A stretch of DNA of 24,322 nucleotides from a virus. The notes under the pieces were generated by a model. It saw nothing but the letters and a program-made list of their open reading frames with translations, did no database searches and was not told the DNA's origin. Position numbers and translations under genes: made by a program. Positions 124-24,322 of the stretch are shown here, in pieces. The stretch lies in IMG/VR virus record IMGVR_UViG_3300014911_000466; one strand, given 5' to 3'. Numbering within the stretch: the first letter of the stretch is position 1; every line of letters begins with the position of its first letter.

Positions 124-2127
124 AGAATCTACGATTATTATGCCACATTCTATGACCCTAACATGAGTGAGGTTAGGCTTTACGATGAAAGATGGGAAGT
201 TCAACGCTACAGAAATGGGAAATGGAATGATATAGGTGCTCAGTCAGGCGCTCCAATCTTCAAAATCTCTCAATCTGAAACTTGCATTAACATCACGAAG
301 AGCTTTCATTCATGGGCTGGCTGGCTCAATATAACCTATTGTTTCCGTGAAGGCTCTCCATTAAAACATACTGTAGTTTTTAAGTCTGAAATTGCTGAAG
401 CTACGACTTTTAGAATTATTCAGAAGTGGGCTGGAATAGTCGCGGCGAAGGTTAAGCATGCTAAAGGCGAGGATACAATAACTTCAGCTAAAACGATAGA
501 TAGCCCGTGGTTTAGGTTTGAGAAGGCGGATGGAAGCCTCAGCGTCTATGAGAATCAGTGGAGCATGTATTATGGCTTCAACGAGACGACTGGCGAGGTC
601 TACGTTCTCAGCAACCATAACTTGAAGCCCGTGGAGATTGACGTTCACGCTCGGGGATTGAAGGCGGATTTTGTGTTTGGAAACTGGACTTTGGCGAGTG
701 GAGAAAGATTAATTATTGACCCTGAAACAGCAACATTATCGCCTCCGCTAAGAGATACGTTTGCAGATGAATACAACCCTGACCTTGATAGGGAAAGCGA
801 AACTTACCTTTTAGTTGCCAACAAAACAGGCTACAGTGGACGGGCATATATTCTATTTAACTTGTCAAGTATCCCTTCGGATGCTTGGATTTCATCTGCA
901 CTACTGAAACTTTATCATTATGGTGGAACGGGGACGGTTGGTGAGCAGGCAACGATTCAGGCTCGCAGAGTTACTTCAAACTGGACAACAATAACATGGA
1001 ACAACCAGCCGTCTTTCTCCAGTGAGATAACAGCTGAAACCACTGTCACGTTTGGCAATTATGACTGGTATTCATGGGAGATTAAGAGTGATGTTCAGAT
1101 GTGGGTGAACGGTTCCTGCCCCAATTACGGAACTGTTCTGCTGATAAATGTTGCCAACAGCCCAGAGTTTTACTTTTACAGCCAAGAATATGACGGCTAT
1201 GACCCGCAGCTTGAAGTAACTTACACAGCTAACCAGCCTCCTAACGGTCCTACGCTTGACAGCCCAGCCAACGCCACACGCTTCAATCCTTCAGCAAACG
1301 TAACGTTCAACTGGACATTTAGCGATGCCGACGCTGGCGATTCGCAATCAGCCTTCCAGTTCCAGCTTGATGATAATTCGGATTTTTCCTCGCCGATAAT
1401 AGACACGGGCAAAGTCAGCAGTTCAACCTCAAGCACCACGCAGACTCTGCCCTCAACTGTCGGCTTATATTATTGGCGCGTCAAAACATGGGACAGTTAT
1501 GATGCTGAGGGTTCCTGGAGTAGCAGTAGAACATTAATTGTGGACAAACTTAACGTTACGTTTACAGTTTCGCCTGAAAATCCGCAGGCAGGAGACAAAA
1601 TCACTTTAAGCTGGACGATAAAACGGGAATATGACGGTTCAACCGTAACTAACTTTACAATTGACATTGCAAGAGACGGTGCCTTATGGATGGAAGACTT
1701 AACCGTGAATAATATAACGGACTACGAGGAGGAGGAGATGAGCCATACATATGATGTTTATGCGGGCACAGTAGTTGACTTGGATTACGGCTTAAACACA
1801 TGGGACAGCACTCCAATAACTGTAACTTGGACTGGAACCGGCGGAGGAGGAGGCAGCCTGCCTCCTGCTCCAGAGGAAACGCCGGCTCCAACTCCGACGT
1901 CTGAAGTAACGCCGCCTATGGCTCCATCTAACCTTGTTGTTGTCGGCGTCTTAATTATTGTTGGAATAGTTAGTTTCGCTGTGGCGAGCAGTGAGGCTAA
2001 GCCTAAGATTAGTGTTAGCCGTAGGAAATGGAGTTCGTCTCGTAGACGGGCTTTGAAGAAGAGGGTTAAATGGAGGAAGCCTAAGACGAAGGCGGTTAAG
2101 TGGAGGAGGGAGAAAACGTGGGAGTGA
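1..2127 (+). CDS. Large membrane-anchored adhesin (3' part; begins near 24050 across the junction, about 758 aa): N-terminal domain ending IIDP, DNRLRE-type domain, Fn3/Ig domains, G/P linker, TM helix, basic tail
   Basis: Frame is open from base 1 (HYKWVSAPQW...). DNRLRE-like motifs RAYILFNLSSIP, TWNNQP and NYG; Fn3-like YYWRVKTWD; C-terminal TM followed by a K/R/W-rich tail. Confidence 0.85.
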   Translation, partial: HYKWVSAPQWVWDGSAYVPYIFKDRYASEGYYQVQTGLIGARIYDYYATFYDPNMSEVRLYDERWEVQRYRNGKWNDIGAQSGAPIFKISQSETCINITKSFHSWAGWLNITYCFREGSPLKHTVVFKSEIAEATTFRIIQKWAGIVAAKVKHAKGEDTITSAKTIDSPWFRFEKADGSLSVYENQWSMYYGFNETTGEVYVLSNHNLKPVEIDVHARGLKADFVFGNWTLASGERLIIDPETATLSPPLRDTFADEYNPDLDRESETYLLVANKTGYSGRAYILFNLSSIPSDAWISSALLKLYHYGGTGTVGEQATIQARRVTSNWTTITWNNQPSFSSEITAETTVTFGNYDWYSWEIKSDVQMWVNGSCPNYGTVLLINVANSPEFYFYSQEYDGYDPQLEVTYTANQPPNGPTLDSPANATRFNPSANVTFNWTFSDADAGDSQSAFQFQLDDNSDFSSPIIDTGKVSSSTSSTTQTLPSTVGLYYWRVKTWDSYDAEGSWSSSRTLIVDKLNVTFTVSPENPQAGDKITLSWTIKREYDGSTVTNFTIDIARDGALWMEDLTVNNITDYEEEEMSHTYDVYAGTVVDLDYGLNTWDSTPITVTWTGTGGGGGSLPPAPEETPAPTPTSEVTPPMAPSNLVVVGVLIIVGIVSFAVASSEAKPKISVSRRKWSSSRRRALKKRVKWRKPKTKAVKWRREKTWE

Positions 2128-4082
2128 AAGTTTTTAGGATTGTTGCAACTGCATCTTTGATTTTGCTGATTTTACTTAGCCAATTTGCGGTTTTTCGGTT
2201 TATTCCGAAAGTGAAGGCTCAAGAGGAATGTCTTAAGATTTATTATGATTCTGAGAAGGGCTATTATTATTTCTGGACTTTGAATAGGGAAAAGGTTGTG
2301 CTTGAAAAGAATGGTTTTGCAGTTTTGAATAGATGGGATGGCGAAGCATGGATAAAATTTGGCTCGCTTCCTTCTGTGGGCGAGATTGAAATTGAGGTTG
2401 AGGCGGAGCTTGTAGAGAACAAGTTGAAGTGGAAAGGTAAATGGAAAATTGGAATAGAAGAAGTTGAAGTTGAAATAGAATTGGAGCCTAAGAACATTAG
2501 CGAGTATGGCGATTTAGAATGGAGCATGAAATTAACAGATAAACCGCCGATAAATGCTTTCTCTATGCCTATTCAAAGTGAAAATCTCAAATTTTATTAT
2601 CAGCCTCCGCTTTATGAGGAATATGGCTTTTCTTTGCCTTTCAGCAATAGCACTTTCTTTGTTAATGCTACTCATGTTATGGAATTTAATGGGACAGATT
2701 GGATAACGACAACTTATAGACCAGAAAACGTTGTTGGCTCTTATGCTATCTATCATGCCTATAAAATGCATAATGAATATAAGACTGGAAAAGCATTCCA
2801 CATTTACCGTCCCAAAATCATAGATGCAGAAGGAAATGAAGCTTGGTGTAACCTTAACATTTCTAATAATCTTTTGAAAATTGAGATTCCACAAGAATTT
2901 TTGGATAAGGCTGTTTATCCCGTAACCATTGACCCGACATTCGGATACACTACTAAAGGTGCAAACCAAGCATTAACTCCTGGAAATCGTATTTTTGCTT
3001 CATGGTATACATGCCCAGAGAATGGGCAAGCAAACAGCATAACCGTTTACTTAAAGCAATATAGTAGCTACACACCGAAAATTAAATGTGCCATTTATAG
3101 AAAATCTGATGGTTCTTTAATTGGTTACACAGAAGAGTGGCAATTGACAAGTGGATGGGACGGCTGGAGAACTTTTAGTATTATTTCGGGAGGAAACCTT
3201 CAAGCTGGCACGGATTATTGGTTAGCTATGTGGGGGAATGAATTCTATTACCGTTATTACGATTCAGTGTCAGACAAGGGCTGCCAAAAATCAGCTACTT
3301 ACAATGATTGGCCTGACCCCTTAACTGGTATTACCACAACAGACAACAAAAATAGCATTTACTGCACCTACACGGCTGGAGGCGGAGGTGATACTACACC
3401 GCCAACCTACGACGCTAACACTTTAGGAACAAACACTACCGCAGCTGGACAGCCATGCCTATTCCACTGCAACTGGAGCGACGATACTGGCTTGTCGGGC
3501 TTCATACTTGAACACAACAACACTGGCGTTTTAACAAACGAGACTTGGACAAGCTTTGACAGTTTAGGCACAGGCAACACATGGAGCAACATCACATTAA
3601 CTTTGAACAACACTGTAGGAGTTGTCATTCAATGGAGAATCTACGCTAACGACACAAGCAACAACTGGAACGTAACAGACATACAATATTTAACCACAAC
3701 ATTCTACGCTGAAATCACCATTCAAACAACAAGCCATTCCTGGAACATTATGCCTGGACAGTCTAACGTTCTCATAAACGAGGGAAACATCACAATCACG
3801 GTTACTGCAAACGCCAATTTCACAATTCAAGTTAAAGGAAGCGGAGATTTAACTTGCGGCTCCCATTCCATCCCGCTAAGCAACGTGAAAGTTCATAAAG
3901 ACACGTTAGCTTCAGCCATTAGCCTTTCAACCAGCTGGCAAGACGTGCCCGGCTTAGTTAATGTGGCTTCTGGAACAGATATCACGTTAAAGTTTAAGCT
4001 TTGGCTAAGCGTGCCGGATGGAACTCCGGCTGGAGATTACACCTATACGCTTTACATTCAGGTGGTGCAGTATAATGGCTAA
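2118..4082 (+). CDS. Secreted multidomain adhesin (signal peptide, YPVTIDP domain, beta-sandwich domains, C-terminal pilin-like domain); putative fibre tip
   Basis: Signal peptide and no C-terminal TM; last ~120 aa are paralogous to the C-terminus of 4162..5136; SD GGAGGAGG precedes GTG 2118. Confidence 0.8.
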   Translation: MGVKVFRIVATASLILLILLSQFAVFRFIPKVKAQEECLKIYYDSEKGYYYFWTLNREKVVLEKNGFAVLNRWDGEAWIKFGSLPSVGEIEIEVEAELVENKLKWKGKWKIGIEEVEVEIELEPKNISEYGDLEWSMKLTDKPPINAFSMPIQSENLKFYYQPPLYEEYGFSLPFSNSTFFVNATHVMEFNGTDWITTTYRPENVVGSYAIYHAYKMHNEYKTGKAFHIYRPKIIDAEGNEAWCNLNISNNLLKIEIPQEFLDKAVYPVTIDPTFGYTTKGANQALTPGNRIFASWYTCPENGQANSITVYLKQYSSYTPKIKCAIYRKSDGSLIGYTEEWQLTSGWDGWRTFSIISGGNLQAGTDYWLAMWGNEFYYRYYDSVSDKGCQKSATYNDWPDPLTGITTTDNKNSIYCTYTAGGGGDTTPPTYDANTLGTNTTAAGQPCLFHCNWSDDTGLSGFILEHNNTGVLTNETWTSFDSLGTGNTWSNITLTLNNTVGVVIQWRIYANDTSNNWNVTDIQYLTTTFYAEITIQTTSHSWNIMPGQSNVLINEGNITITVTANANFTIQVKGSGDLTCGSHSIPLSNVKVHKDTLASAISLSTSWQDVPGLVNVASGTDITLKFKLWLSVPDGTPAGDYTYTLYIQVVQYNG

Positions 4083-4083
4083 A

Positions 4084-4139
4084 TTCCGTCCAGAATCCGT
4101 CTTTAGGCGCATGCTTGCCTAAGACGGCTGGAAACGGAA
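4084..4139 (+). other. Intergenic RNA hairpin with bulge-helix-bulge-like geometry
   Basis: TTCCGT/ACGGAA outer stem, CCAG/CTGG 4-bp helix, AAT and AA bulges on opposite strands, 11-bp inner stem with one bulged T. Confidence 0.65.
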
Positions 4140-4161
4140 AATGGAAAGGAGAGATGGAAAA

Positions 4162-5136
4162 ATGAAACGTGAAATATTGGCTGTATCCCTGCTGTTAACG
4201 TTAGCCTTGGCTTTAACAGTGTCTATGCCTTTAGCTTTGGCTGCCACTGAAGGTTCAAGCTCAGGCACGGCTACTGTAGGAAACGCTGCACCCACAGTTT
4301 CTAATCCCGGCCTGTTTGACAGCGCAGACTCTACAAACTTGAACAATACAAACTTGGATGTCTGGGTGGAATATCATGTTAACTGCACCGTTTCAGACAG
4401 CAACCAGCTTATAGACTTAGTGAATGTAACTTTCATCATTTGGGAAACAACCTATGCAACCGAGTCTTCAGCCGACAATAACGTTAACCACTACACTTTT
4501 GCATGGATAAACAGCACCGACACTTGGGACGAGATTGGGCCGGATGGTTCTGGAGACAGTCACTTGGTGGCTGCAAGCTGCAGTGACCCCGCAGATTTGA
4601 CGGCTACAAGTGGAACCTGGAAGTTAGCGTTTAAACTTCATAAGACAGCAAACTACACCGCCAGCAAAACTTGGACTGTTAAAATAATTGCTTATGACAA
4701 CGCCGGAAACACTGGAACCGTTCAAACGTTATGGTTTGGAGTCAACTTCTACTTGGAGTTGACTGTGGATGACGCTTCCCATGGATGGAGCAGCCTAAGC
4801 CCAGGCGACACAGACGTTCTGATAGATACGCCAGCAGATGGAGATATTGACGTTACCGTAACGGCTAATGCGCCATTCACTCTGCAGGCAAAGGGAAGCG
4901 GGAACTTAGCTGATGGAAACGGAAACGAGATTCCTTTAAGCAACGTGAAAATCCACAAGGACACTCTGGCAAGCGCAACTTCTCTAAGCACAACCTACGC
5001 CGACATTGGAGGCTTAACAAACCTTCCAGCCGGCGAATCTCAAACATACTCGTTTAAACTTTGGATAAGCGTTCCTTCAGGGCAGCCAAGCGGAACCTAC
5101 ACGTACACGCTATACGTGCAGGGAATACAAGCCTAA
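4162..5136 (+). CDS. Secreted two-domain pilin-like protein, 324 aa; putative fibre shaft
   Basis: Signal peptide ending ALA; mature N-terminal strand ATEGSSSGTATVGN; Ig-like domain; C-terminal domain with IPLSNVKIHKDTLASA and GTYTYTLY; no membrane anchor. Confidence 0.75.
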   Translation: MKREILAVSLLLTLALALTVSMPLALAATEGSSSGTATVGNAAPTVSNPGLFDSADSTNLNNTNLDVWVEYHVNCTVSDSNQLIDLVNVTFIIWETTYATESSADNNVNHYTFAWINSTDTWDEIGPDGSGDSHLVAASCSDPADLTATSGTWKLAFKLHKTANYTASKTWTVKIIAYDNAGNTGTVQTLWFGVNFYLELTVDDASHGWSSLSPGDTDVLIDTPADGDIDVTVTANAPFTLQAKGSGNLADGNGNEIPLSNVKIHKDTLASATSLSTTYADIGGLTNLPAGESQTYSFKLWISVPSGQPSGTYTYTLYVQGIQA

Positions 5137-5151
5137 ACTGAGGGATAACCC

Positions 5152-5745
5152 ATGAGAGTCCTGCCTCTCGTTTCCCTACTTGTTTTCTTAGCGGCAGCCA
5201 TGCCGGTTGTTTATGCGTTGCCCAGTATCGGCGTAAGCCACTACAACACGGAAGCCATTATATATATTGGAGAAACCAAAGAGTTTCCGGTTGGAAGAAT
5301 CTACAATACTGGAGACGCGGTTTTAAACGCTTCATGCAATTGGATTCCAGATGGAAACTGCAGTTTAACCGTGAAGGTTAAGCCGGAAAGTTATCTGTTG
5401 AAGCCGGAAGACAGTTTCCAAGTTATCGTAGTTGTTGAATCTCCAAGCGAAGAGCAAATAGGTAACTATTCTGGAATAGTTGAGGTTCTATGTAAGCCAT
5501 TAAACATTACTGGGAATCCCGTTTCTCCCGCTGGGTCGTTGCAGATTAAAATACGCGTTCTACCTTTAACGGATCAAGCAGAGTCCGCAGGAAAAGAAAC
5601 AGGCGGGACTACATTCAATTATGGTTTGGTGGTTATTGTTTGTTTGGCTTTAGGTTCAATCGCTGTCTCTGCAGTTTGGTTCAAGAGAAACAAGAAGCCA
5701 ATTAAGAAGGTTGCTCCTACACGTTTTTTATTGTTTCATTATTAA
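5152..5745 (+). CDS. Signal peptide, Ig-like domain, C-terminal TM and basic tail (chaperone/anchor-like)
   Basis: Ig-like motifs IYNTGD and GNYSGIVEV; TM GLVVIVCLALGSIAVSAVWF; KRNKKPIKK. Confidence 0.75.
   Translation: MRVLPLVSLLVFLAAAMPVVYALPSIGVSHYNTEAIIYIGETKEFPVGRIYNTGDAVLNASCNWIPDGNCSLTVKVKPESYLLKPEDSFQVIVVVESPSEEQIGNYSGIVEVLCKPLNITGNPVSPAGSLQIKIRVLPLTDQAESAGKETGGTTFNYGLVVIVCLALGSIAVSAVWFKRNKKPIKKVAPTRFLLFHY
5724..5730 (+). other. Candidate -1 ribosomal frameshift heptamer T TTT TTA
   Basis: Correctly phased in the 5152 frame (CGT TTT TTA); the -1 frame is the downstream ORF. Confidence 0.5.
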
Positions 5746-6119
5746 TTGTGGTTTTTCTGGCTGGAATCAACGTAAACTATGCTTATGGGCTTGAAAGTTC
5801 CGAAGGGCAAGCAACAGTAATAAAGAAAGGCTCATACTCTACTGGCAACGCAACCATAATTGAAACTTTAGCATACTCTATTGGTGAAGCAATAATAAGG
5901 CTTGTTGGCGGCCCATGGGTTCCCCCAGTTCCTCCTGCTCCTCCAAGCCCAGTTCCTCCTATAGCCATTAGATTTCCGATTGAAAGAATTGTCATTGCCC
6001 TAATCATCATCGTTGCAACCTTGATTGTCATGGGCGTAAGCGAGAAACAACATAGGAAGCCGAAACTTAAACGCAGCAGAAAAAAATGGAGAAAAAAGAT
6101 TAGGCAGCCTTTAGATTAA
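5724..6119 (+). CDS. Membrane anchor with three 13-aa repeats, Pro-rich linker, TM and basic tail (track start 5748)
   Basis: The hydrophobic segment FFIVSLLIVVFLAG begins upstream of GTG 5748 with no canonical start; repeats follow S-x-G-x-A-[TI]-[VI]. Confidence 0.7.
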   Translation, partial: FFIVSLLIVVFLAGINVNYAYGLESSEGQATVIKKGSYSTGNATIIETLAYSIGEAIIRLVGGPWVPPVPPAPPSPVPPIAIRFPIERIVIALIIIVATLIVMGVSEKQHRKPKLKRSRKKWRKKIRQPLD

Positions 6120-6553
6120 GGTTGCAGGTTCAGATGGATTGTGAAGCTTTTTGTTCCGACTGGTTCTCCGCCGTACACATGTAAAGTTAACGTTCCATTA
6201 AGCCATTCTCCGGGCTGAACTGTGGCTCCCTGCCTGTCGTAGGTTAATGTCCAGCCTGAAGGCAAAGCCTCATAGGTTAAAGTCACGTTGAAAGGCATGT
6301 TTCCAGCGTTAAAAATGTTTAGCGGCTTTGAAGTGTCGCTTCCCGGCTCCACGTTTCCCCAATCATAAATGTTTAGGGTTGTGCTGTTCATTCTCTTTCC
6401 ATCCAAGTATACTTCAGCCTCCACTTTCTCGACGACATTCACGCTGACCTGAATGTCATAAACCAGAGAAGTGACGGCGTAGGCAATGCTTGCACACGCC
6501 AAAACGATTAGAACAGCCAACACAAAGCTTACACGCCTACTTCTCCTCAACAT
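6116..6553 (-). CDS. Secreted TasA/AbpA-like fibre subunit (signal peptide, N-terminal beta strand, single beta-sandwich)
   Basis: SD GGAGGTGA; signal peptide ending AYA; motifs DWGNVEPG, NAGNMP and TVQPG; no anchor. Confidence 0.6.
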   Translation of the reverse strand: MLRRSRRVSFVLAVLIVLACASIAYAVTSLVYDIQVSVNVVEKVEAEVYLDGKRMNSTTLNIYDWGNVEPGSDTSKPLNIFNAGNMPFNVTLTYEALPSGWTLTYDRQGATVQPGEWLNGTLTLHVYGGEPVGTKSFTIHLNLQP

Positions 6554-6574
6554 TTCTCACCTCCGTTTAAATTT

Positions 6575-7000
6575 TTATTTTTCATTTAGAAGCCTCCATT
6601 TTGGATGATTCTTTAATTCCTCCGCGTGCCTGCTACATACTGGATATTCCCTGTTTGTCGGCGCAAAAATGGCTGTGGTTACGGCTATGTTCTCGCAGAA
6701 ATGGCATTTCGGCGCCGAAACTTTATTTTGAATTAGAACTGTGCTGTGCGGCTCTGCCTTGATGAATTGGATGAGTGTAGGCTGTTGCTTTCTTTCTTCA
6801 CATTCCTGGTTGAACCTTTCTATGAGCATGTCGATGGCTTGAGAAAGAGATAGCCTCGTGTATTTGCGGACGTTATCCTTGAAAAGTTCCATTTGTCCTA
6901 CGCGAAGATAGAAAGTGTAGCATTTACGGTATTCATTATTTAAATTATTTAAATTATTTAATGACTCTTTAACATTATTATTATCTGGAGTGTAGGACAT
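6575..7000 (-). CDS. Hypothetical DNA-binding protein (RHH-like segment plus C-terminal CxxC...CxxH Zn finger)
   Basis: YTFYLR...SLSQAIDMLIERF; CHFC...CSRH. Confidence 0.55.
   Translation of the reverse strand: MSYTPDNNNVKESLNNLNNLNNEYRKCYTFYLRVGQMELFKDNVRKYTRLSLSQAIDMLIERFNQECEERKQQPTLIQFIKAEPHSTVLIQNKVSAPKCHFCENIAVTTAIFAPTNREYPVCSRHAEELKNHPKWRLLNEK
6935..6961. repeat. 3 x ATTATTTAA tandem repeat
   Basis: Exact copies at 6935, 6944 and 6953. Confidence 0.9.
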
Positions 7001-7169
7001 TTTCTTTCCTCCTATTTCTTAACATTTCATAAATGGAATAGCGAACCAGCTCGCTAACTGTTCTGCCAGAAGATTCGGCTAACTGCTCCAGCTGCCTTTT
7101 AATACGCGGCTCAACTCTAACTCTTAAAACGCAGTCTTTACGCTCACGAAAAACTCCAGCCTTACTCAA
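6981..7169 (-). CDS. Ribbon-helix-helix (CopG-like) protein
   Basis: VLRVRVEPRIKRQLEQLAESSGRTVSELVR. Confidence 0.85.
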   Translation of the reverse strand: MSKAGVFRERKDCVLRVRVEPRIKRQLEQLAESSGRTVSELVRYSIYEMLRNRRKENVLHSR

Positions 7170-7371
7170 TTTTTTCCGCTCCTATTTTGCCTGTTTCTAT
7201 TGTGTGGTTTATCCAGCAGAAGCTTCCGTCAAACATGGCATGACACTTGCCTTGACGGTTGCACGCCGCAACTTTCCCTTTAAAAGTCAACTCGGTTTCC
7301 GTTACGTCTTTAAGCGTTAACTCAACGCATTCCTTAACTTTTGGGCAATACTGCAAAACCTTAACCTTCAT
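7162..7371 (-). CDS. Small Cys-rich protein
   Basis: Five Cys plus His residues; coupled overlaps with neighbouring ORFs. Confidence 0.6.
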   Translation of the reverse strand: MKVKVLQYCPKVKECVELTLKDVTETELTFKGKVAACNRQGKCHAMFDGSFCWINHTIETGKIGAEKIE

Positions 7372-7628
7372 TTTTCCGCTTCCCTCTTTCGTTTTGCTAA
7401 AATTTCAAAGATTTTCTTTAATCTCTCAAACTCACCATAAATTTCGACAAGTTTTTCACTCGTTACCTCGTTTTCAGTCATTTTTTCTAAACCTTCAATA
7501 ACTTCCATCATCTCTTGGCAAAGCCATTCCATACTGGTTGGTTCGCTTGGTGAGATGTTGCCTTCTTCCAAATTTTTTATGATTAAATTCAAAGAATACA
7601 TCACACGACGAAAGTGTCTATCTTTCAT
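7368..7628 (-). CDS. Hypothetical helical protein
   Basis: Overlap-coupled ORF in the operon. Confidence 0.6.
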   Translation of the reverse strand: MKDRHFRRVMYSLNLIIKNLEEGNISPSEPTSMEWLCQEMMEVIEGLEKMTENEVTSEKLVEIYGEFERLKKIFEILAKRKREAEK

Positions 7629-7906
7629 TCCTTCAACAACTCCTCTAATTCATTAACCCATCTCAAAAGTTGTTCCCGATTTCTTCCACCATAATTAAGG
7701 TTAATATTTCCTTTTAACCAGCCAAATAAATGCACAAATTTCTCTTTCTCGGTTAGAACATATTTTTGTTTTAGTTGTTGGAGTATGCTTAGAACGTCCT
7801 CAAGCCTAACCCATTTATGTCTGCGTAAAACCCATTCTGGAAGCTCATAACGCTCAAAGGCTTTTTGTTTGAGCCTCTCCTCCAATCCTTTCCAAACATC
7901 ACTCAT
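7625..7906 (-). CDS. Hypothetical protein, 93 aa
   Basis: ATG 7906 lies next to the upstream stop; SD-like GGAGG upstream. Confidence 0.6.
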   Translation of the reverse strand: MSDVWKGLEERLKQKAFERYELPEWVLRRHKWVRLEDVLSILQQLKQKYVLTEKEKFVHLFGWLKGNINLNYGGRNREQLLRWVNELEELLKE

Positions 7907-8078
7907 GGTTTGTTTTCCTCCTTTTTCTTTTGTCATGCGGTTTTGTCCGGAGCTTCCGATGGCATTTCGGGCAGACTGGCAAGCCTTTTCCGTTGATTTT
8001 ATGCTCGCCTTTCCTTATCCAGATTCCACACCAAGGACAATAATAATACCAGGCGTAACGGCTAACAGCCACAGGCAA
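7899..8078 (-). CDS. Zinc-ribbon protein, 59 aa
   Basis: CPWC...CPKC; TTG start immediately after the upstream stop. Confidence 0.7.
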   Translation of the reverse strand: MPVAVSRYAWYYYCPWCGIWIRKGEHKINGKGLPVCPKCHRKLRTKPHDKRKRRKTNHE

Positions 8079-8079
8079 C

Positions 8080-8253
8080 TCATCTACGCCTCCTTTTCTT
8101 TCTTTTCGGCCTGAAATGTTCACATTCCACTATGGAATCGCGGTGGATAAGCGGATTGTTAAAGTGAGCGTTTGGGTTGACGCATTCAACATGTAACTCG
8201 TCAAAGTATCGGCTAAAACAGCATTTCCAGCATAAAACCTTAGCCTTAGGCAA
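8080..8253 (-). CDS. Small Cys-rich protein, 57 aa (not in ORF track)
   Basis: MPKAKVLCWKCCFSRYFDELHVECVNP...ECEHFRPKRKKRRRR; GGAGG SD; fills the operon gap. Confidence 0.6.
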   Translation of the reverse strand: MPKAKVLCWKCCFSRYFDELHVECVNPNAHFNNPLIHRDSIVECEHFRPKRKKRRRR

Positions 8254-8392
8254 TTCTTTTCCTCCGCTTTTTTATTACTCGAAAAGTCAAATCGCGAATG
8301 TTATCGAGGTAATTAAGCAAAAGCTGAAAGCCATACCTTCCGCCCTTGTATAGGATGCGTTTACCCCTAAAAATCAAATAAACATCACTCAT
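8246..8392 (-). CDS. Small basic protein, 48 aa (not in ORF track)
   Basis: MSDVYLIFRGKRILYKGGRYGFQ...; ATGA overlap with the upstream stop. Confidence 0.55.
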   Translation of the reverse strand: MSDVYLIFRGKRILYKGGRYGFQLLLNYLDNIRDLTFRVIKKRRKRIA

Positions 8393-9180
8393 TTTTGGAC
8401 AGCCTCCAGCAAAGTTTTTTGGCTTAAAATCTCATCTAACCGACTAATCCAAGCCTTAAAGAATCGTTTTCTTTCCTCAGAGTTTTTACAGCTCCAATTT
8501 CCCAGCTTTGAGTTTACTGGGCGTGTCCATGCTGTGCTATCGAAACTGTCAATAAAGCCTTTAACAAGCCTCAAAGCTCTAAGCTTCAAACCAAAAACAT
8601 GAAGTTTCTTGTCTGGGAGTAGTTTTCTTGCAAGCCAGCATGTAGCGTAAATAATCATTATTTCCGGCTCAACACATAACATTCCAATTGCAAAATAGTC
8701 AAATTCAGAAAGAATGCCACTTCCCTGATACAGCTTTATGCATCTTTCTATGCTTTTCGGCTGTTTATTCCATCCCTGAACCGGAATAAGCCAATTAACA
8801 TAATCAAACTTCTCCGTATATTTAACGACATTCTGAAATGTCCTTTCAATATTAGTAACTTCTGTGGAAAGCCAAAGATTGCCAGGATGATAGTCATCGC
8901 AGTAATCTGGAACTGTAGCGTAAACTTCAGCATCCGGAAGAATACGCCTCAAATAATTATGAAGCTTAACAATCCTGTAGATATGTCCTTTCGGATAGTC
9001 TTTAACTTGTGGATTTCTGAAAATCTCAATGCCACTGTCAACTATAACGCTTTTAATAGCCTTTCTATGCCTGTGGATGTAGCCTAAAGCAGGATTATTA
9101 GCGTTAATCAATATATATGGCCAATCCACATCGGAAGGAGGCAAAGTATAAAATCTAATCACGGCTACATCAGCTCCCAA
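8389..9180 (-). CDS. tRNA-guanine transglycosylase / DpdA-like enzyme
   Basis: Motifs VDSG, PDY, IPVQG, AIG, LHVFG and DSFDSTAW in TGT-barrel order; the start may be GTG 9162. Confidence 0.75.
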   Translation of the reverse strand: MGADVAVIRFYTLPPSDVDWPYILINANNPALGYIHRHRKAIKSVIVDSGIEIFRNPQVKDYPKGHIYRIVKLHNYLRRILPDAEVYATVPDYCDDYHPGNLWLSTEVTNIERTFQNVVKYTEKFDYVNWLIPVQGWNKQPKSIERCIKLYQGSGILSEFDYFAIGMLCVEPEIMIIYATCWLARKLLPDKKLHVFGLKLRALRLVKGFIDSFDSTAWTRPVNSKLGNWSCKNSEERKRFFKAWISRLDEILSQKTLLEAVQK

Positions 9181-15264: not shown

Positions 15265-16254
15265 TCACCCTTGAAAGGCTGTTTTCTTTTCTTTTTTAGG
15301 TTTTGTCTTAATTAAAGAATATATGGCTTGGTTTCTGGGGACGTTTTGGAGCGCTTGCCGTTTGTCGATTGCTTCTAAGACTTCTAAGCCTAAGTCTGTT
15401 AGGTCATACCAGTAGGTTGATTTTTTCCTTATTGGAACGATGAGGTCTCTTGCTTTGCATCGCGTTAATGCATCTTTGTATTTTTGAGGGAGCGCGTCAG
15501 GGTTTCGCTCACGGAACCGTTCATACGAAATCATGCCTTTCTCTCGAATAAGCTCCATTAGTTCGATGTCTTCTGGCTTCAGCCTTTTAATGATGTAGTC
15601 CACTCTTGACTCTGCAAGGGCATCTTTCACTCTTACTATTACCTCGTCGACTAAGGCCATTCTCATCTGGTCGTATTCTTGGTAGACATCTTTGGGTACA
15701 GGTTCAAACACGTTGGTTTCAATCCATTCTTTACGTCTTTTAGGTTTCCAGCCTTTATAGTCCTGGTCCCACAGTACTCTGTCATATTTGTAAACGCCTC
15801 TTTTAGGAATGAAAACTTCATGTGTGTATTTCTGCATGATCTGATAGGTTGGCTCGGTGGGATCCACCATAGTAGCTATTAATACAGCTAAGCGAGTGGC
15901 CAAAACGTCGAATCCTCCTTTAAACGCGTCCCAAGCTCTGTCATATTGGGTTTCAGCCTTGTTGCTGTGGGCTCCGAAATCATCGTAAATCAAGATTGGC
16001 ACTCGCATGTGAAGCTTGTTTAAGGTAGGCACTCTTTCAGGCTCGCCTTTCTCAACTTTATACATTAGCCCCGAAAGATTAAATACGAAGCTTTGCAGAA
16101 CCTTGTCCCAGTCTTTATACCATGTATATGCAAGCTGCATGGCAAACGTTGTTTTTCCGCCGCGCTGCACGCCCCAAACCACAATCCACATCCATTCATC
16201 ATTAAGAATAGCATTCCATATGTCCCTTACTACACGCGGCCTTCTCTCCGTCAT
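15265..16254 (-). CDS. P-loop ATPase with C-terminal winged-helix-like domain
   Basis: Walker A GVQRGGKT, Walker B ILIYDD; C-terminal wHTH-like region ending YDLTDLGLEVL. Confidence 0.8.
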   Translation of the reverse strand: MTERRPRVVRDIWNAILNDEWMWIVVWGVQRGGKTTFAMQLAYTWYKDWDKVLQSFVFNLSGLMYKVEKGEPERVPTLNKLHMRVPILIYDDFGAHSNKAETQYDRAWDAFKGGFDVLATRLAVLIATMVDPTEPTYQIMQKYTHEVFIPKRGVYKYDRVLWDQDYKGWKPKRRKEWIETNVFEPVPKDVYQEYDQMRMALVDEVIVRVKDALAESRVDYIIKRLKPEDIELMELIREKGMISYERFRERNPDALPQKYKDALTRCKARDLIVPIRKKSTYWYDLTDLGLEVLEAIDKRQALQNVPRNQAIYSLIKTKPKKEKKTAFQG

Positions 16255-21395: not shown

Positions 21396-21980
21396 ATGAT
21401 TCGGCAAGACACCATAAGCCGTACACTCATAATCTTAGCCATAATGATAACCATTTACTTGAGTACTTTTGAAACTACAACTATTGTTCTTTTCCCGGCT
21501 GTTCTGCTTATTACAGGCTTAATCATGGAATTTTATCTGGAAAAGAAAAGGGAAGTTACAGACCACATAACTGAAGAGTCAACAATTAAAAGCGTAGGCT
21601 ATTACACTGTAATTGCTTTATTCGGCATTTTCCTCGCCGGCTACACAATTGAAAAGTTCCGGTTTCCAATGGAGCTTACAGGCTATGACGCTTTGCTTTA
21701 CAGCATGCTCATCGCCGTAGCTGAAGAACAGTTCTTCAGAGGATTCATCACCGACTGGCTTTTAACAAAAATCAGACAGCCGCACATGGCATTGCTGGCC
21801 TCCGCACTTGTCTTTACAATTTATCATTTCGCAAGATACGGCACCAAACCCGAAGCTTTACTCTACGTGTTCGCAGGAGGTTTCATTCTAAGCTGGGCAG
21901 CCTACAAAAGCCGAAGGCTAAGCCCATGCATGCTCGCACACATAATCAACAACGCAATAGCCGTAATAGGAGGAGCATGA
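21396..21980 (+). CDS. CPBP (Abi / type II CAAX) intramembrane metalloprotease
   Basis: AEEQFFRG, FTIYH and AHIINN motifs in a multi-TM protein. Confidence 0.9.
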   Translation: MIRQDTISRTLIILAIMITIYLSTFETTTIVLFPAVLLITGLIMEFYLEKKREVTDHITEESTIKSVGYYTVIALFGIFLAGYTIEKFRFPMELTGYDALLYSMLIAVAEEQFFRGFITDWLLTKIRQPHMALLASALVFTIYHFARYGTKPEALLYVFAGGFILSWAAYKSRRLSPCMLAHIINNAIAVIGGA

Positions 21981-23534: not shown

Positions 23535-23640
23535 AAGAAAGAGCGGAAGAAAAAGAAAGAAATGGGGCAAGATTGGGCCTCCCCATTCGGCTAAGCGTAG
23601 AAGGTGGCTTGCGAAGATTAGGCGTAAAAGAAAGAGGTGA
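23512..23640 (+). CDS. Protamine-like 42-aa protein (not in ORF track)
   Basis: SD GGAGGAGGTGA; MARRKTRRRKSGRKRKKWGKIGPPHSAKRRRWLAKIRRKRKR; 24 of 42 residues K/R, none acidic. Confidence 0.8.
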   Translation: MARRKTRRRKSGRKRKKWGKIGPPHSAKRRRWLAKIRRKRKR

Positions 23641-23645
23641 AAAAA

Positions 23646-24038
23646 GTGGCGAGAAAAATTAGAGTTAGGCGAAGAGGCTATTGGCGCGGGCCCTATGTGT
23701 ATCGTCGCCGAGGCAAGCTGATACGGGTTAAACGCCACTATGTCGGTCCAACAACCTACATGGCGAGAGACGTGGGCAAGCCTGGGCGAGGCAAAAAGCT
23801 GATAGAGATAGAGCCCGGAAAACTTAAGAAGTACGGTTATTCAACTGACAAGAATGCGAGGGCTCGACGTAGGGCTTTAGCCAAGGCGGTTAGGGCGTAT
23901 GGCGCAACATCTGTGTTCAGAATGCTTAACGCGCAGGTTGTGCTGCGTAAATCTGCCAGAACCGGAGAGAGAGCCAGAGACAAGCGCATTTTCAAGGCTG
24001 ACCGAGACTGGGTTAAAAGACGGTACATGCAGAGGTGA
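23646..24038 (+). CDS. Highly basic 130-aa putative nucleoid protein
   Basis: SD GAGGTGA before GTG 23646; R/K-rich; DVGKPGRG, GKLKKYGY, VFRMLNA and IFKADRDWV motifs. Confidence 0.75.
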   Translation: MARKIRVRRRGYWRGPYVYRRRGKLIRVKRHYVGPTTYMARDVGKPGRGKKLIEIEPGKLKKYGYSTDKNARARRRALAKAVRAYGATSVFRMLNAQVVLRKSARTGERARDKRIFKADRDWVKRRYMQR

Positions 24039-24049
24039 ATGACTCACTC

Positions 24050-24322
24050 TTGAAAATACGTAAGTTAGCCTCCACTTTTCTGATTATTTGTTTAGCTTTG
24101 CTTCTCTTTCGCGCTTTACCCAACTTTGCGGGTGCTCGGCCCGCAGAGTGGGTTTTGGTTGAGAGAGGAGCTAATTTTGAGCGCTGGTTTAACGGGACGC
24201 ACTATAAATGGGTTAGTGCCCCGCAGTGGGTTTGGGACGGCTCGGCTTATGTTCCATACATTTTTAAGGATAGATATGCAAGTGAAGGCTATTATCAGGT
24301 TCAGACTGGATTGATAGGAGCG
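24050..24322 (+). CDS. 5' part (signal peptide) of the junction-spanning adhesin
   Basis: TTG 24050 (or GTG 24035, overlapping the upstream TGA) gives MKIRKLASTFLIICLALLLFRALPNFAGA..., in frame with 1..2127. Confidence 0.85.
   Translation, partial: MKIRKLASTFLIICLALLLFRALPNFAGARPAEWVLVERGANFERWFNGTHYKWVSAPQWVWDGSAYVPYIFKDRYASEGYYQVQTGLIGA
24200..24322. repeat. Terminal direct repeat, right copy (circular assembly overlap)
   Basis: Identical to 1-123. Confidence 0.97.

Follow-up and report, generated by a model that had tools for sequence, protein, structure and literature searches.

The virus record IMGVR_UViG_3300014911_000466 is a stretch of 24,322 nucleotides, analysed here over its whole length (hereafter the window). 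At the end of a plus-strand block of genes for membrane and secreted proteins it carries four open reading frames (ORFs), P0002, P0003, P0004 and P0005, which, as judged from structure models and from comparison of related loci, probably encode a membrane-anchored fibre built by donor-strand complementation. A preliminary description of this DNA had proposed at this place a virus-encoded, self-contained pilus operon with a tip, a shaft, a chaperone and an anchor. The features of P0002-P0005 are as described below and are not a product of chance.

The predicted shaft subunit, P0003, is encoded on the plus strand at 4141..5136, and starts at an ATG at either 4141 (331 amino acids, aa) or 4162 (324 aa). 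Its N-terminus is a hydrophobic signal sequence ending in ALA/A and followed by ATEGSSSGTATVGN; two beta-rich domains come after the donor segment, and a C-terminal anchor is absent. The signal peptide, N-terminal strand, C-terminal beta-sandwich and lack of an anchor described earlier for 4162..5136 are all present. The putative donor strand spans mature residues 35-50 (4243..4290, plus strand; ATEGSSSGTATVGNAA). Among 34 P0003 homologues, G42 and A44 of this strand are conserved in at least 90%, and the pattern S-x-G-[TS]-A-x-[VI] occurs immediately after the signal-peptide cleavage site. Next come an N-terminal V-set-like beta-sandwich domain (residues 51-204; 4291..4752, plus strand), for which structural matches were generic immunoglobulin (Ig) domains with a Z of ~10, and the predicted acceptor domain (residues 205-331; 4753..5133, plus strand), whose first (205-222) and last (313-329) strands flank the docked donor. 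The family is large: a word-indexed search returned 45 clusters of P0003 homologues, and an exhaustive profile search with the P0003 family found 991 representative clusters (50% identity) at E <= 1e-3, with 160 at E <= 1e-30. Its only named relatives are a protein from an Archaeoglobales metagenome-assembled genome (MAG) and a Hadarchaeota MAG contig. P0003 contains 5 N-glycosylation sequons as compared with 5.2 +/- 1.9 in shuffled sequences, an absence of enrichment that is uninformative either way.

As a monomer, P0003 was modelled by AlphaFold2 with a predicted local distance difference test score (pLDDT) of 93 and with the donor segment as a coil. We then modelled two copies of the mature protein (residues 35-331) together, using our own alignment as input, three runs and 3 controls. 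The homodimer reached an interaction score (ipSAE) of 0.77 (0.76-0.78 between runs) as compared with 0.00 for the best of the controls, with a contact agreement of at least 97% among runs and a partner pLDDT of at least 94. In calibration, 20 of 30 proteins with a solved pair structure attained the mark applied to this score, as did 1 of 23 known as single chains; these figures are approximate here, as our own alignment was used. The modelled interface is asymmetric, head-to-tail and non-reciprocal: residues 35-49 of copy 2 contact residues 205-222, 256, 264 and 313-329 of copy 1. The donor strand runs antiparallel to the last strand of the acceptor (pairs 37-325, 40-323, 42-321/323 and 46-320/315) and parallel to its first strand (pairs 40-209/213, 42-214 and 45-219), a position that, reading the contact list by general Ig topology, we take to be that of the missing G strand. 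The geometry is like that of chaperone-usher pili, in which the exchanged donor also lies antiparallel to the last strand. The preliminary description had been staked on insertion of the N-terminal strand in trans, and such insertion is what the dimer model predicts; the N-terminal strand of P0003 is probably a donor strand.

The isolated acceptor domain was compared with solved structures in two independent searches. Pilins or pilin domains of the chaperone-usher class made up about half of the top 50 matches in each, and the other matches included fibre proteins that are TasA or resemble it. The matches include the Csu pilus (Z 8.1), the TasA-like protein TLP-1b (Z 8.1), CupE (Z 7.2), the FimH pilin domain (Z 7.1), CS17 (Z 7.1), FimA (Z 6.9) and CfaB (Z 6.8), and further ones listed are FimG, PapA/F/H/K, EcpA, Caf1, CsuE and CfaE; the TasA fibre was matched by Foldseek with an E of 4.1e-3. 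A structure search of the ESM Atlas retrieved a cluster of the SCPU 'Csu type fimbrial protein' over residues 49-330, with template-modelling scores of 0.53/0.55. Since these scores are middling, we regard the modelled acceptor domain as having a fold likeness to chaperone-usher pilins, not membership among them, and its likeness to TasA-like fibres is no better than that to chaperone-usher pilins. The resemblance to chaperone-usher and TasA-type subunits on which the preliminary description had drawn holds at this level of the fold (Z 6-8). The specific pilin pattern came from the isolated acceptor domain only and not from the whole P0003 chain, with which fold searches were uninformative, yielding generic tandem-Ig and antibody matches and, in first place, a CfaB fusion with a template-modelling score of only ~0.3.

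P0002 (plus strand, 2100..4082, with a GTG start at 2100 or 2118), the putative distal tip subunit, has an acceptor domain without a donor strand. It is composed of a signal peptide, an N-terminal region of ~400 aa that belongs to no known family, an Ig-like spacer and a C-terminal, pilin-like acceptor domain (3696..4079, plus strand) paralogous to the C-terminal domain of P0003, and no SSGTATV-like strand occurs after the signal peptide. The C-terminal 150 residues align to residues 181-330 of P0003 with 51% identity (E 3e-42), bearing out the earlier observation that 2118..4082 ends in a paralogue of that domain and lacks the strand. All of the groove residues predicted in P0003 (E206, H214, W216, G222, I236, L256, I264, G318, Y320, Y322 and L324) are conserved in P0002 and, G318 and Y320 excepted, are identical in all five tip domains compared. 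The tip proteins of other loci (related loci are designated by L numbers) have only the C-terminal module in common and carry unrelated N-terminal payloads, for example DUF2341 in L001.

For a family-wide view, the best 150 of the 991 representatives were aligned to the family hidden Markov model (HMM), and the donor was scored by HMM position. The most common class consisted of short forms (<=380 aa) with the donor positions matched in the first 60 residues (84/150), followed by long forms in which the module occurs at the extreme C-terminus and no donor is matched (41/150). The others were short forms without a donor match, several of which are short fragments (11/150), long forms with a C-terminal module and an internal donor-like strand (10/150), and proteins in which the module is N-terminal and followed by a C-terminal extension (4/150). 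By these sequence alignments the shaft/tip dichotomy is general, not absolute; the 41/150 long forms, alongside the 51% paralogy, agree with the tip that had been proposed earlier, one with an acceptor domain and no donor strand. In the ten long forms with an internal donor-like strand (P0085, P0119, P0122, P0128, P0136, P0158, P0186, P0190, P0198 and P0203), this strand is placed between the N-terminal payload and the two-domain module, clearly so in several (e.g., SIPGTLTVGYSPPEV) and doubtfully in others (P0198). These proteins may be adhesins able to sit within the fibre and not at its tip alone; a like exception was reported for the Elr pilus, in which some adhesins act as donor and acceptor at once and can therefore take a place inside the fibre (10.64898/2026.10.17.759780).

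Two membrane-anchored ORFs follow the shaft gene, as had been noted in the preliminary description, and the products of both, P0004 and P0005, terminate in a hydrophobic helix and a basic tail. P0005 (plus strand, 5748..6119, in a frame open from 5706; 123 aa), the putative base or anchor, carries donor-like strands and no acceptor domain: a signal-like h-region is followed by three donor-like strands, a Pro-rich stalk, a transmembrane helix (5988-6038) and the basic tail. The strands stand in tandem (5796..5903, plus strand; SSEGQATVI, STGNATIIE and SIGEAIIRL) and have the motif S-x-G-x-A-[TI]-[VI] in common with the donor strand of the shaft. Although the DNA has diverged by 15%, the P0005 protein is maintained in L005 and L013; in L005, a variant of the element with 85% nucleotide identity over window positions 3422-6577, the orthologue retains all three copies, and a triple donor repeat is also found in a fused protein of L006.

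All close loci contain a trio of genes, encoding a large variable protein with a P0003-like C-terminus, then a P0003 homologue, then a P0004-like protein with an Ig domain and a transmembrane helix. In five lineages (the window and four others) there is, in addition, an anchored neighbour bearing the locus's own donor motif. In the window this neighbour is P0005 with its three copies (SSEGQATV, STGNATII and SIGEAIIR). The 327-aa fused protein of L006 carries ISSGSAVV, TSSGSAVV and TNQGKAVV, where the shaft of that locus has TSSGSATV; a 223-aa anchored protein of L009 carries SSGTATVSN, identical to its own shaft at 9 of 9 positions, the unusual S included; and anchored proteins of 294 aa in L001 and 478 aa in L004 carry SKGTATVGN and SSTGIAGVGN, respectively, near their N-termini. 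A C-terminal transmembrane helix is present in all of these donor-bearing anchors, with an extended basic tail too in the window, L004, L006 and L009, and in four loci the donor motif comes right after the signal-like sequence. The order in the L006 fused protein is an Ig domain, a transmembrane helix, a basic loop, a signal-like transmembrane segment ending in CVA/DPTG, three strands, a Pro-rich stalk, a transmembrane helix and a basic tail. A short strand common to unrelated anchored proteins is hard to explain otherwise than as a docking element, and, of the four lines of evidence that point to a donor strand, this comparison of genomes is the strongest. The idea of a membrane anchor for the fibre, already put forward in the preliminary description, is favoured by the three strands of P0005 and by the donor-bearing anchors of the four other lineages.

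Variation around the trio was seen in several of these loci. L008, the Hadarchaeota MAG contig (29% identity), was the one locus found in a contig search by closer alignment; at 1027-8525 it contains three shaft-like genes (310-340 aa, with donor-like EEIPVVAYIQNAEP and similar strands) among four P0004-like genes, and it may encode several fibres in a branch of the family far removed from the window. L006 (2416-4911) and L007 (395-2890) represent a lineage with a shaft 67% identical to P0003; there, the tip gene is preceded by genes for a DUF5305 protein and for a signal peptidase of type I (S26/S24, 155 aa), with an Rce1-like protease also lying between these two in L007. L005 (4783-6913) and L013 (5383-7220) hold an extra insert with a GT2 glycosyltransferase and a phosphodiesterase-family protein, where the window (~6572-6577) has nothing.

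The remaining partner, P0004 (plus strand, 5152..5745), has a signal peptide, a NEW3/ASH-type Ig ectodomain, a transmembrane helix (~154-175) and a basic tail. The structural neighbours of its ectodomain in the Atlas are NEW3, HYDIN-VesB and Cep192 (ASH/PapD-like) Ig domains, and its match to a model of the StcB fimbrial chaperone was marginal (E 0.035, against a 500-bit cut-off). It has one Ig ectodomain and a transmembrane helix, where the periplasmic chaperones of chaperone-usher systems are PapD-like and of two domains. Searching solved structures by sequence with profiles of the shaft and P0004 families yielded no relative of note, the one match having an E of 1.5. The word 'chaperone', which the preliminary description had applied to this gene, finds no direct support in these data. 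In each of the close loci examined, the gene next downstream of the shaft gene encodes a P0004 homologue, and in L006 the P0004-like part is fused to the anchor in one ORF. Because of this conserved adjacency, the fusion to the anchor and the analogy to the ElrE protein of the Elr pilus, we consider P0004 a candidate membrane-bound assembly factor or chaperone.

The boundary between P0004 and P0005 has features of its own. In the window, no ATG, GTG or TTG precedes the signal-like h-region of P0005. A T TTT TTA heptamer lies at 5724..5730 (plus strand) in the P0004 frame, the -1 frame of which is the frame of P0005; L005, at 85% nucleotide identity, retains this heptamer, and TRF(L)LFH- forms the C-terminus of all close P0004 homologues. 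Because of the position of the h-region ahead of canonical starts, the retention of the heptamer in L005 and the shared end of the P0004 homologues, a P0004-P0005 fusion by -1 frameshifting, or a non-canonical start, is a plausible reading of the sequence. The open frame of P0005 extends further upstream in L005, where an in-frame TTG would give a normal signal peptide.

Taken together, these features suggest the following mode of assembly. P0002-P0005 would all be exported through Sec, with signal peptidase I removing their signal peptides. In the step for which we have a model, the free N-terminal strand of each P0003 (35-49) would enter the C-terminal Ig-like domain of the preceding subunit, giving a head-to-tail polymer. 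In such a fibre P0002 could stand only at the distal end, because it has an acceptor domain and no donor strand, and would cap it and present its variable N-terminal region as an adhesin. P0005 could stand only at the proximal end, because it has donor strands and no acceptor domain; one of its strands would plug the last groove, with the Pro-rich stalk, transmembrane helix and basic tail tying the fibre to the membrane. P0004, by analogy with ElrE, would be an obligate partner at the membrane, most likely an assembly factor, chaperone or nucleator. The Rce1-like protease, together with a dedicated signal peptidase in L006/L007, may mature the components. The fibre would stand on the membrane that carries P0005, either the membrane of the host cell or a virion envelope derived from it.

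Several observations weigh against a fibre of this kind. The interface is a predicted one, and the mark applied to the dimer may be attained by up to ~19 of every 100 proteins that are single chains. The isolated acceptor domain is modelled at a pLDDT of 97, and because it models so confidently without the donor strand, an open groove is not directly visible. The scores of its fold matches are middling (Z up to 8.1), within a range that the search tool rates as common. In 4 of the 34 family members we detected a match to NEW3/NPCBM_assoc, a family of complete Ig domains (best E 7.8e-07). The rule of a donor-less tip is blurred by the 10 of 51 long forms with a C-terminal module that keep an internal donor-like strand, and P0004 has no demonstrable chaperone fold.

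Where the fibre would stand depends on the nature of the element. Bases 1-123 of the window are exactly those of 24200-24322, so that the sequence forms a closed circle with a true length of 24,199 bp, and the window is a complete circular integrative element. Two sister contigs from other samples and independent assemblies, L010 (24,276 bp) and L011 (24,463 bp), have the same gene order, and near-identical DNA occurs in sediment and hydrothermal-vent metagenomes, with no RNA dataset among the public runs listed for it; the 24.2-kb element is certainly mobile and episomal. It encodes an SSV-type integrase (PF16795, E 2e-35), a second, short tyrosine recombinase and many small ORFs on the minus strand. 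An AAA+ protein (15265-16254, minus strand) matches phrog_5484, 'DnaA-like replication initiation protein' (E 1.1e-14), and is ~25% identical to gp07 of Geoglobus acetivorans pleomorphic virus 1 (GacPV1) and to two related Geoglobus/Archaeoglobus proviruses (E 3e-6 to 1e-4). No tRNA gene was found in the window.

The plus-strand block begins with P0001 (1..2127, with its 5' part at 24035-24322 across the circular junction), a 763-aa surface protein also called as a gene in L010. It is laid out as a signal peptide, a DNRLRE/CBM96 domain, an Ig_Rha78A_N-like domain, a Gly/Pro stalk, a transmembrane helix and a basic tail, with family matches to NF033679 (2.2e-28) and PF24517 (7.5e-20). Its 3' end (2127) overlaps the start of P0002, and the operon really begins upstream of P0002, with P0001. 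The association of P0001 with the fibre is uncertain, as it has no donor motif. Directly upstream of P0001, a very basic protein of 133 aa (23637-24038, plus strand) matches PF19075 (DUF5771; 1.2e-10), and this gene is also present in L010. At the other end of the module, a 145-aa minus-strand ORF (6116-6553) runs towards P0005, the two genes overlapping by 4 bp at their ends, and is retained beside the module in L005, L010, L011 and L013; it has an N-terminal transmembrane helix, a NEW3-like Ig domain (PF10633, E 0.0013) and a weak match to an archaeal pilin N-terminus (E 0.058), and may be a further fibre component. More distant in the window, an Rce1-like (CPBP) intramembrane protease (21396..21980, plus strand; PF02517, 1.7e-19) has counterparts close to the module in L001 (two copies), L003, L007, L009 and L010. 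With a 317-aa and a ~380-400-aa membrane protein it forms a larger block, found with rearrangements in L003, L009 and L010, and it may be a maturation factor of the anchored proteins. The system described earlier as self-contained is doubtfully so, given that relatives keep this protease, and in one lineage a signal peptidase, beside the module.

The same assembly could instead be placed on a virion, with P0005 in the envelope of a pleomorphic or spindle-like archaeal virus and the fibre serving as its adsorption organelle; this differs from a cellular fibre in location only, and we regard it as possible but doubtful. It accords with a circular element of the same size in three assemblies, with the SSV-type integrase, with the resemblance of the AAA+ protein to a DnaA-like PHROG and to a pleomorphic provirus protein, and with the position of the fibre genes within a conserved block of membrane proteins that includes the very basic DUF5771 protein. 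By sequence, the integrase and the ATPase of the element do have viral affinities: an SSV-type integrase and a DnaA-like ATPase are, with a small hydrophobic capsid protein of the VP1 type, marks of spindle viruses like the Fuselloviridae, and a conserved NTPase is, with a VP3-like membrane protein and a VP4-like spike, a mark of the Pleolipoviridae. However, no capsid protein was identified in Pfam or PHROG scans of the window, in which small hydrophobic ORFs were not examined further, and tblastn of all window ORFs against GacPV1 recovered no VP3-like or VP4-like protein, a search that divergent structural proteins could escape, leaving the ATPase alone as a match. P0003 itself had no match by tblastn in the phage and archaeal-virus records of GenBank or among the plasmids of PLSDB, and an alignment search of IMG/VR viral contigs with its family found nothing. 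Relatives of the module lie next to genes for BREX, the TATA-binding protein (TBP) and RNase III, one lies deep in a large MAG contig, and one is near a DUF87 ATPase, a protein typical of conjugative elements. With no recognisable virion protein and with relatives in such chromosomal-looking contexts, the description of the genes as virus-encoded lacks firm support, and a virion location for the fibre is rather unlikely. The fuller picture, that of an enveloped archaeal virus building host-recognition fibres by donor-strand exchange, with P0005 in the envelope and up to three P0002-capped P0003 polymers on each, seems to us unlikely; if true, it would mean that pilus-assembly chemistry had been co-opted as a virion adsorption organelle. 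In our literature search, we found no virus-borne or archaeal-plasmid-borne donor-strand fibre.

A second alternative accepts the strand and the acceptor and questions only the polymer: one or two secreted proteins (P0002, P0003) would be joined to P0005 in short complexes, such as an anchor holding up to three adhesins. The three strands of P0005 could indeed hold three acceptor domains directly, the dimer model describes a pairwise contact and is silent on length, and the ten long forms with both donor and acceptor would fit mixed short assemblies. We nonetheless judge tethering of this kind to be improbable, as donor and acceptor on one protein, with a head-to-tail, non-reciprocal interface, are intrinsically able to polymerise, shaft forms outnumber every other class of the family (84/150), and the same layout yields a polymer in the Elr system. 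The last alternative, that P0002 and P0003 are ordinary secreted or S-layer-associated adhesins with complete Ig domains, in which the N-terminal segment is a linker or processing site and the modelled interface an artefact of beta-strand augmentation, draws on the NEW3/NPCBM_assoc matches noted above, a DUF4625 match among the same 34 members, the generic Ig fold of the P0003 N-terminal domain and the confident modelling of both domains without a partner, but it is very improbable, leaving unexplained the locus-specific donor motif on unrelated anchored neighbours (including the 9-of-9 identity in L009), the lack of a donor segment in most long forms and the dominance of pilins in the structural matches of one domain only.

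The recognition of donor-strand fibres beyond Gram-negative bacteria is recent and concerns TasA, archaeal threads, bundling pili, cannulae and the WxL/Elr pilus. The P0003 family, which has no Pfam family or solved relative and is large (991 representative clusters at 50% identity), would display the full logic of tip, shaft, base and membrane partner in archaea, on an Ig fold like that of chaperone-usher pilins. If a membrane-anchored fibre is what these genes encode, the same assembly solution would be shown to have arisen, or to have been retained, in archaea and bacteria alike among cells with a single membrane, a function could be given to hundreds of archaeal surface proteins that are now anonymous, and a set of modular adhesins would be defined whose N-terminal payloads can be exchanged. 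A small circular integrative element is an unusual home for fibre genes, and one that gives its host, or its own particle, an adhesive fibre would bear on the spread of archaeal elements in sediments. The triple-donor anchor, an arrangement that we did not find described for other donor-strand systems, is directly testable.

Among known systems, the fibre predicted here would belong with the donor-strand fibres, though not as a member of any named family. The archaeal threads (Saci_0406), bundling pili (AbpA, TasA-like), cannulae and Tat-dependent tafi/ABP employ the same principle: their subunits are exported by Sec or Tat and cleaved by signal peptidase I, and the N-terminal strand of each completes the sheet of its neighbour, with a paralogous minor protein proposed as cap or nucleator and no usher known. 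A profile of the P0003 family found nothing at E <= 10 among sequences of the Protein Data Bank (PDB), and the family is therefore not a detectable relative, at the sequence level, of Saci_0406, AbpA, CanA or TasA. Thread subunits (arCOG10215) differ in that they have a single head domain and are further joined by isopeptide links, and AbpA differs in being a jelly-roll; the mature N-terminus of P0003 is ATEGSSSGTATV, not the thread-type D-x-YYY. Neither a donor-only transmembrane anchor nor a mobile-element location is described in the accounts of such archaeal filaments that we consulted. The tapA-sipW-tasA operon of Bacillus subtilis, in which SipW processes TasA and TapA, resembles L006 and L007, where a type I signal peptidase is encoded directly upstream of the tip and shaft genes; in contrast, no signal peptidase gene occurs among the ORFs scanned in the window, and Pfam scans of P0002-P0005 and the 34 shaft homologues gave no match to TasA/Peptidase_M73.

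The best structural matches of the acceptor domain were with the chaperone-usher class (archaic Csu/SCPU and alternate CFA/I CfaB), which also has an N-terminal donor with small or hydrophobic residues alternating inward (here, G42, A44 and V46) and a tip that carries a pilin domain only. The differences are the lack of an usher and of a recognisable two-domain PapD-like periplasmic chaperone, the two-domain shaft and the anchor in the cytoplasmic membrane. No ORF scanned in the window matched the usher family, and among fimbrial pilin families the best match was DUF4402 (E 0.66 for P0003 and 0.057 for the 34 members), far under the 25.2-bit cut-off, with no SCPU or Fimbrial match. The integrase type and the named homologues of the element are archaeal, and we know of no outer membrane in such hosts.

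In its working, the closest analogue would be the Elr/WxL pilus of Enterococcus faecalis. There, a four-part logic was shown experimentally, with ElrA as the tip, ElrD as the shaft, ElrB as the base and ElrE as a membrane-anchored chaperone, and the chaperone-pilin pair forms the conserved core while tips and anchors vary (10.64898/2026.10.17.759780). Both systems belong to single-membrane organisms and, on our reading of P0002-P0005, have the same four roles: a tip with a variable N-terminal payload, a C-terminal acceptor and no donor; a shaft with an N-terminal donor and an acceptor; a small base with an N-terminal donor, a transmembrane helix and a basic tail but no acceptor; and, as the fourth component, an Ig protein with a membrane anchor, whose gene accompanies the others. 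Pfam scans of P0002-P0005 and the 34 shaft homologues found no match to WxL, DUF916 or DUF3324. The system described here differs, moreover, in its two-domain shaft, in the three tandem donor strands of its base, in its archaeal host and location on a mobile element, and in the putative nature of the chaperone role of P0004. Anchoring would also be by the transmembrane helix and not by sortase, because P0005 has no LPXTG before that helix. We therefore read the layout of tip, shaft, base and Ig partner that the two have in common as a likeness of architecture, not homology.

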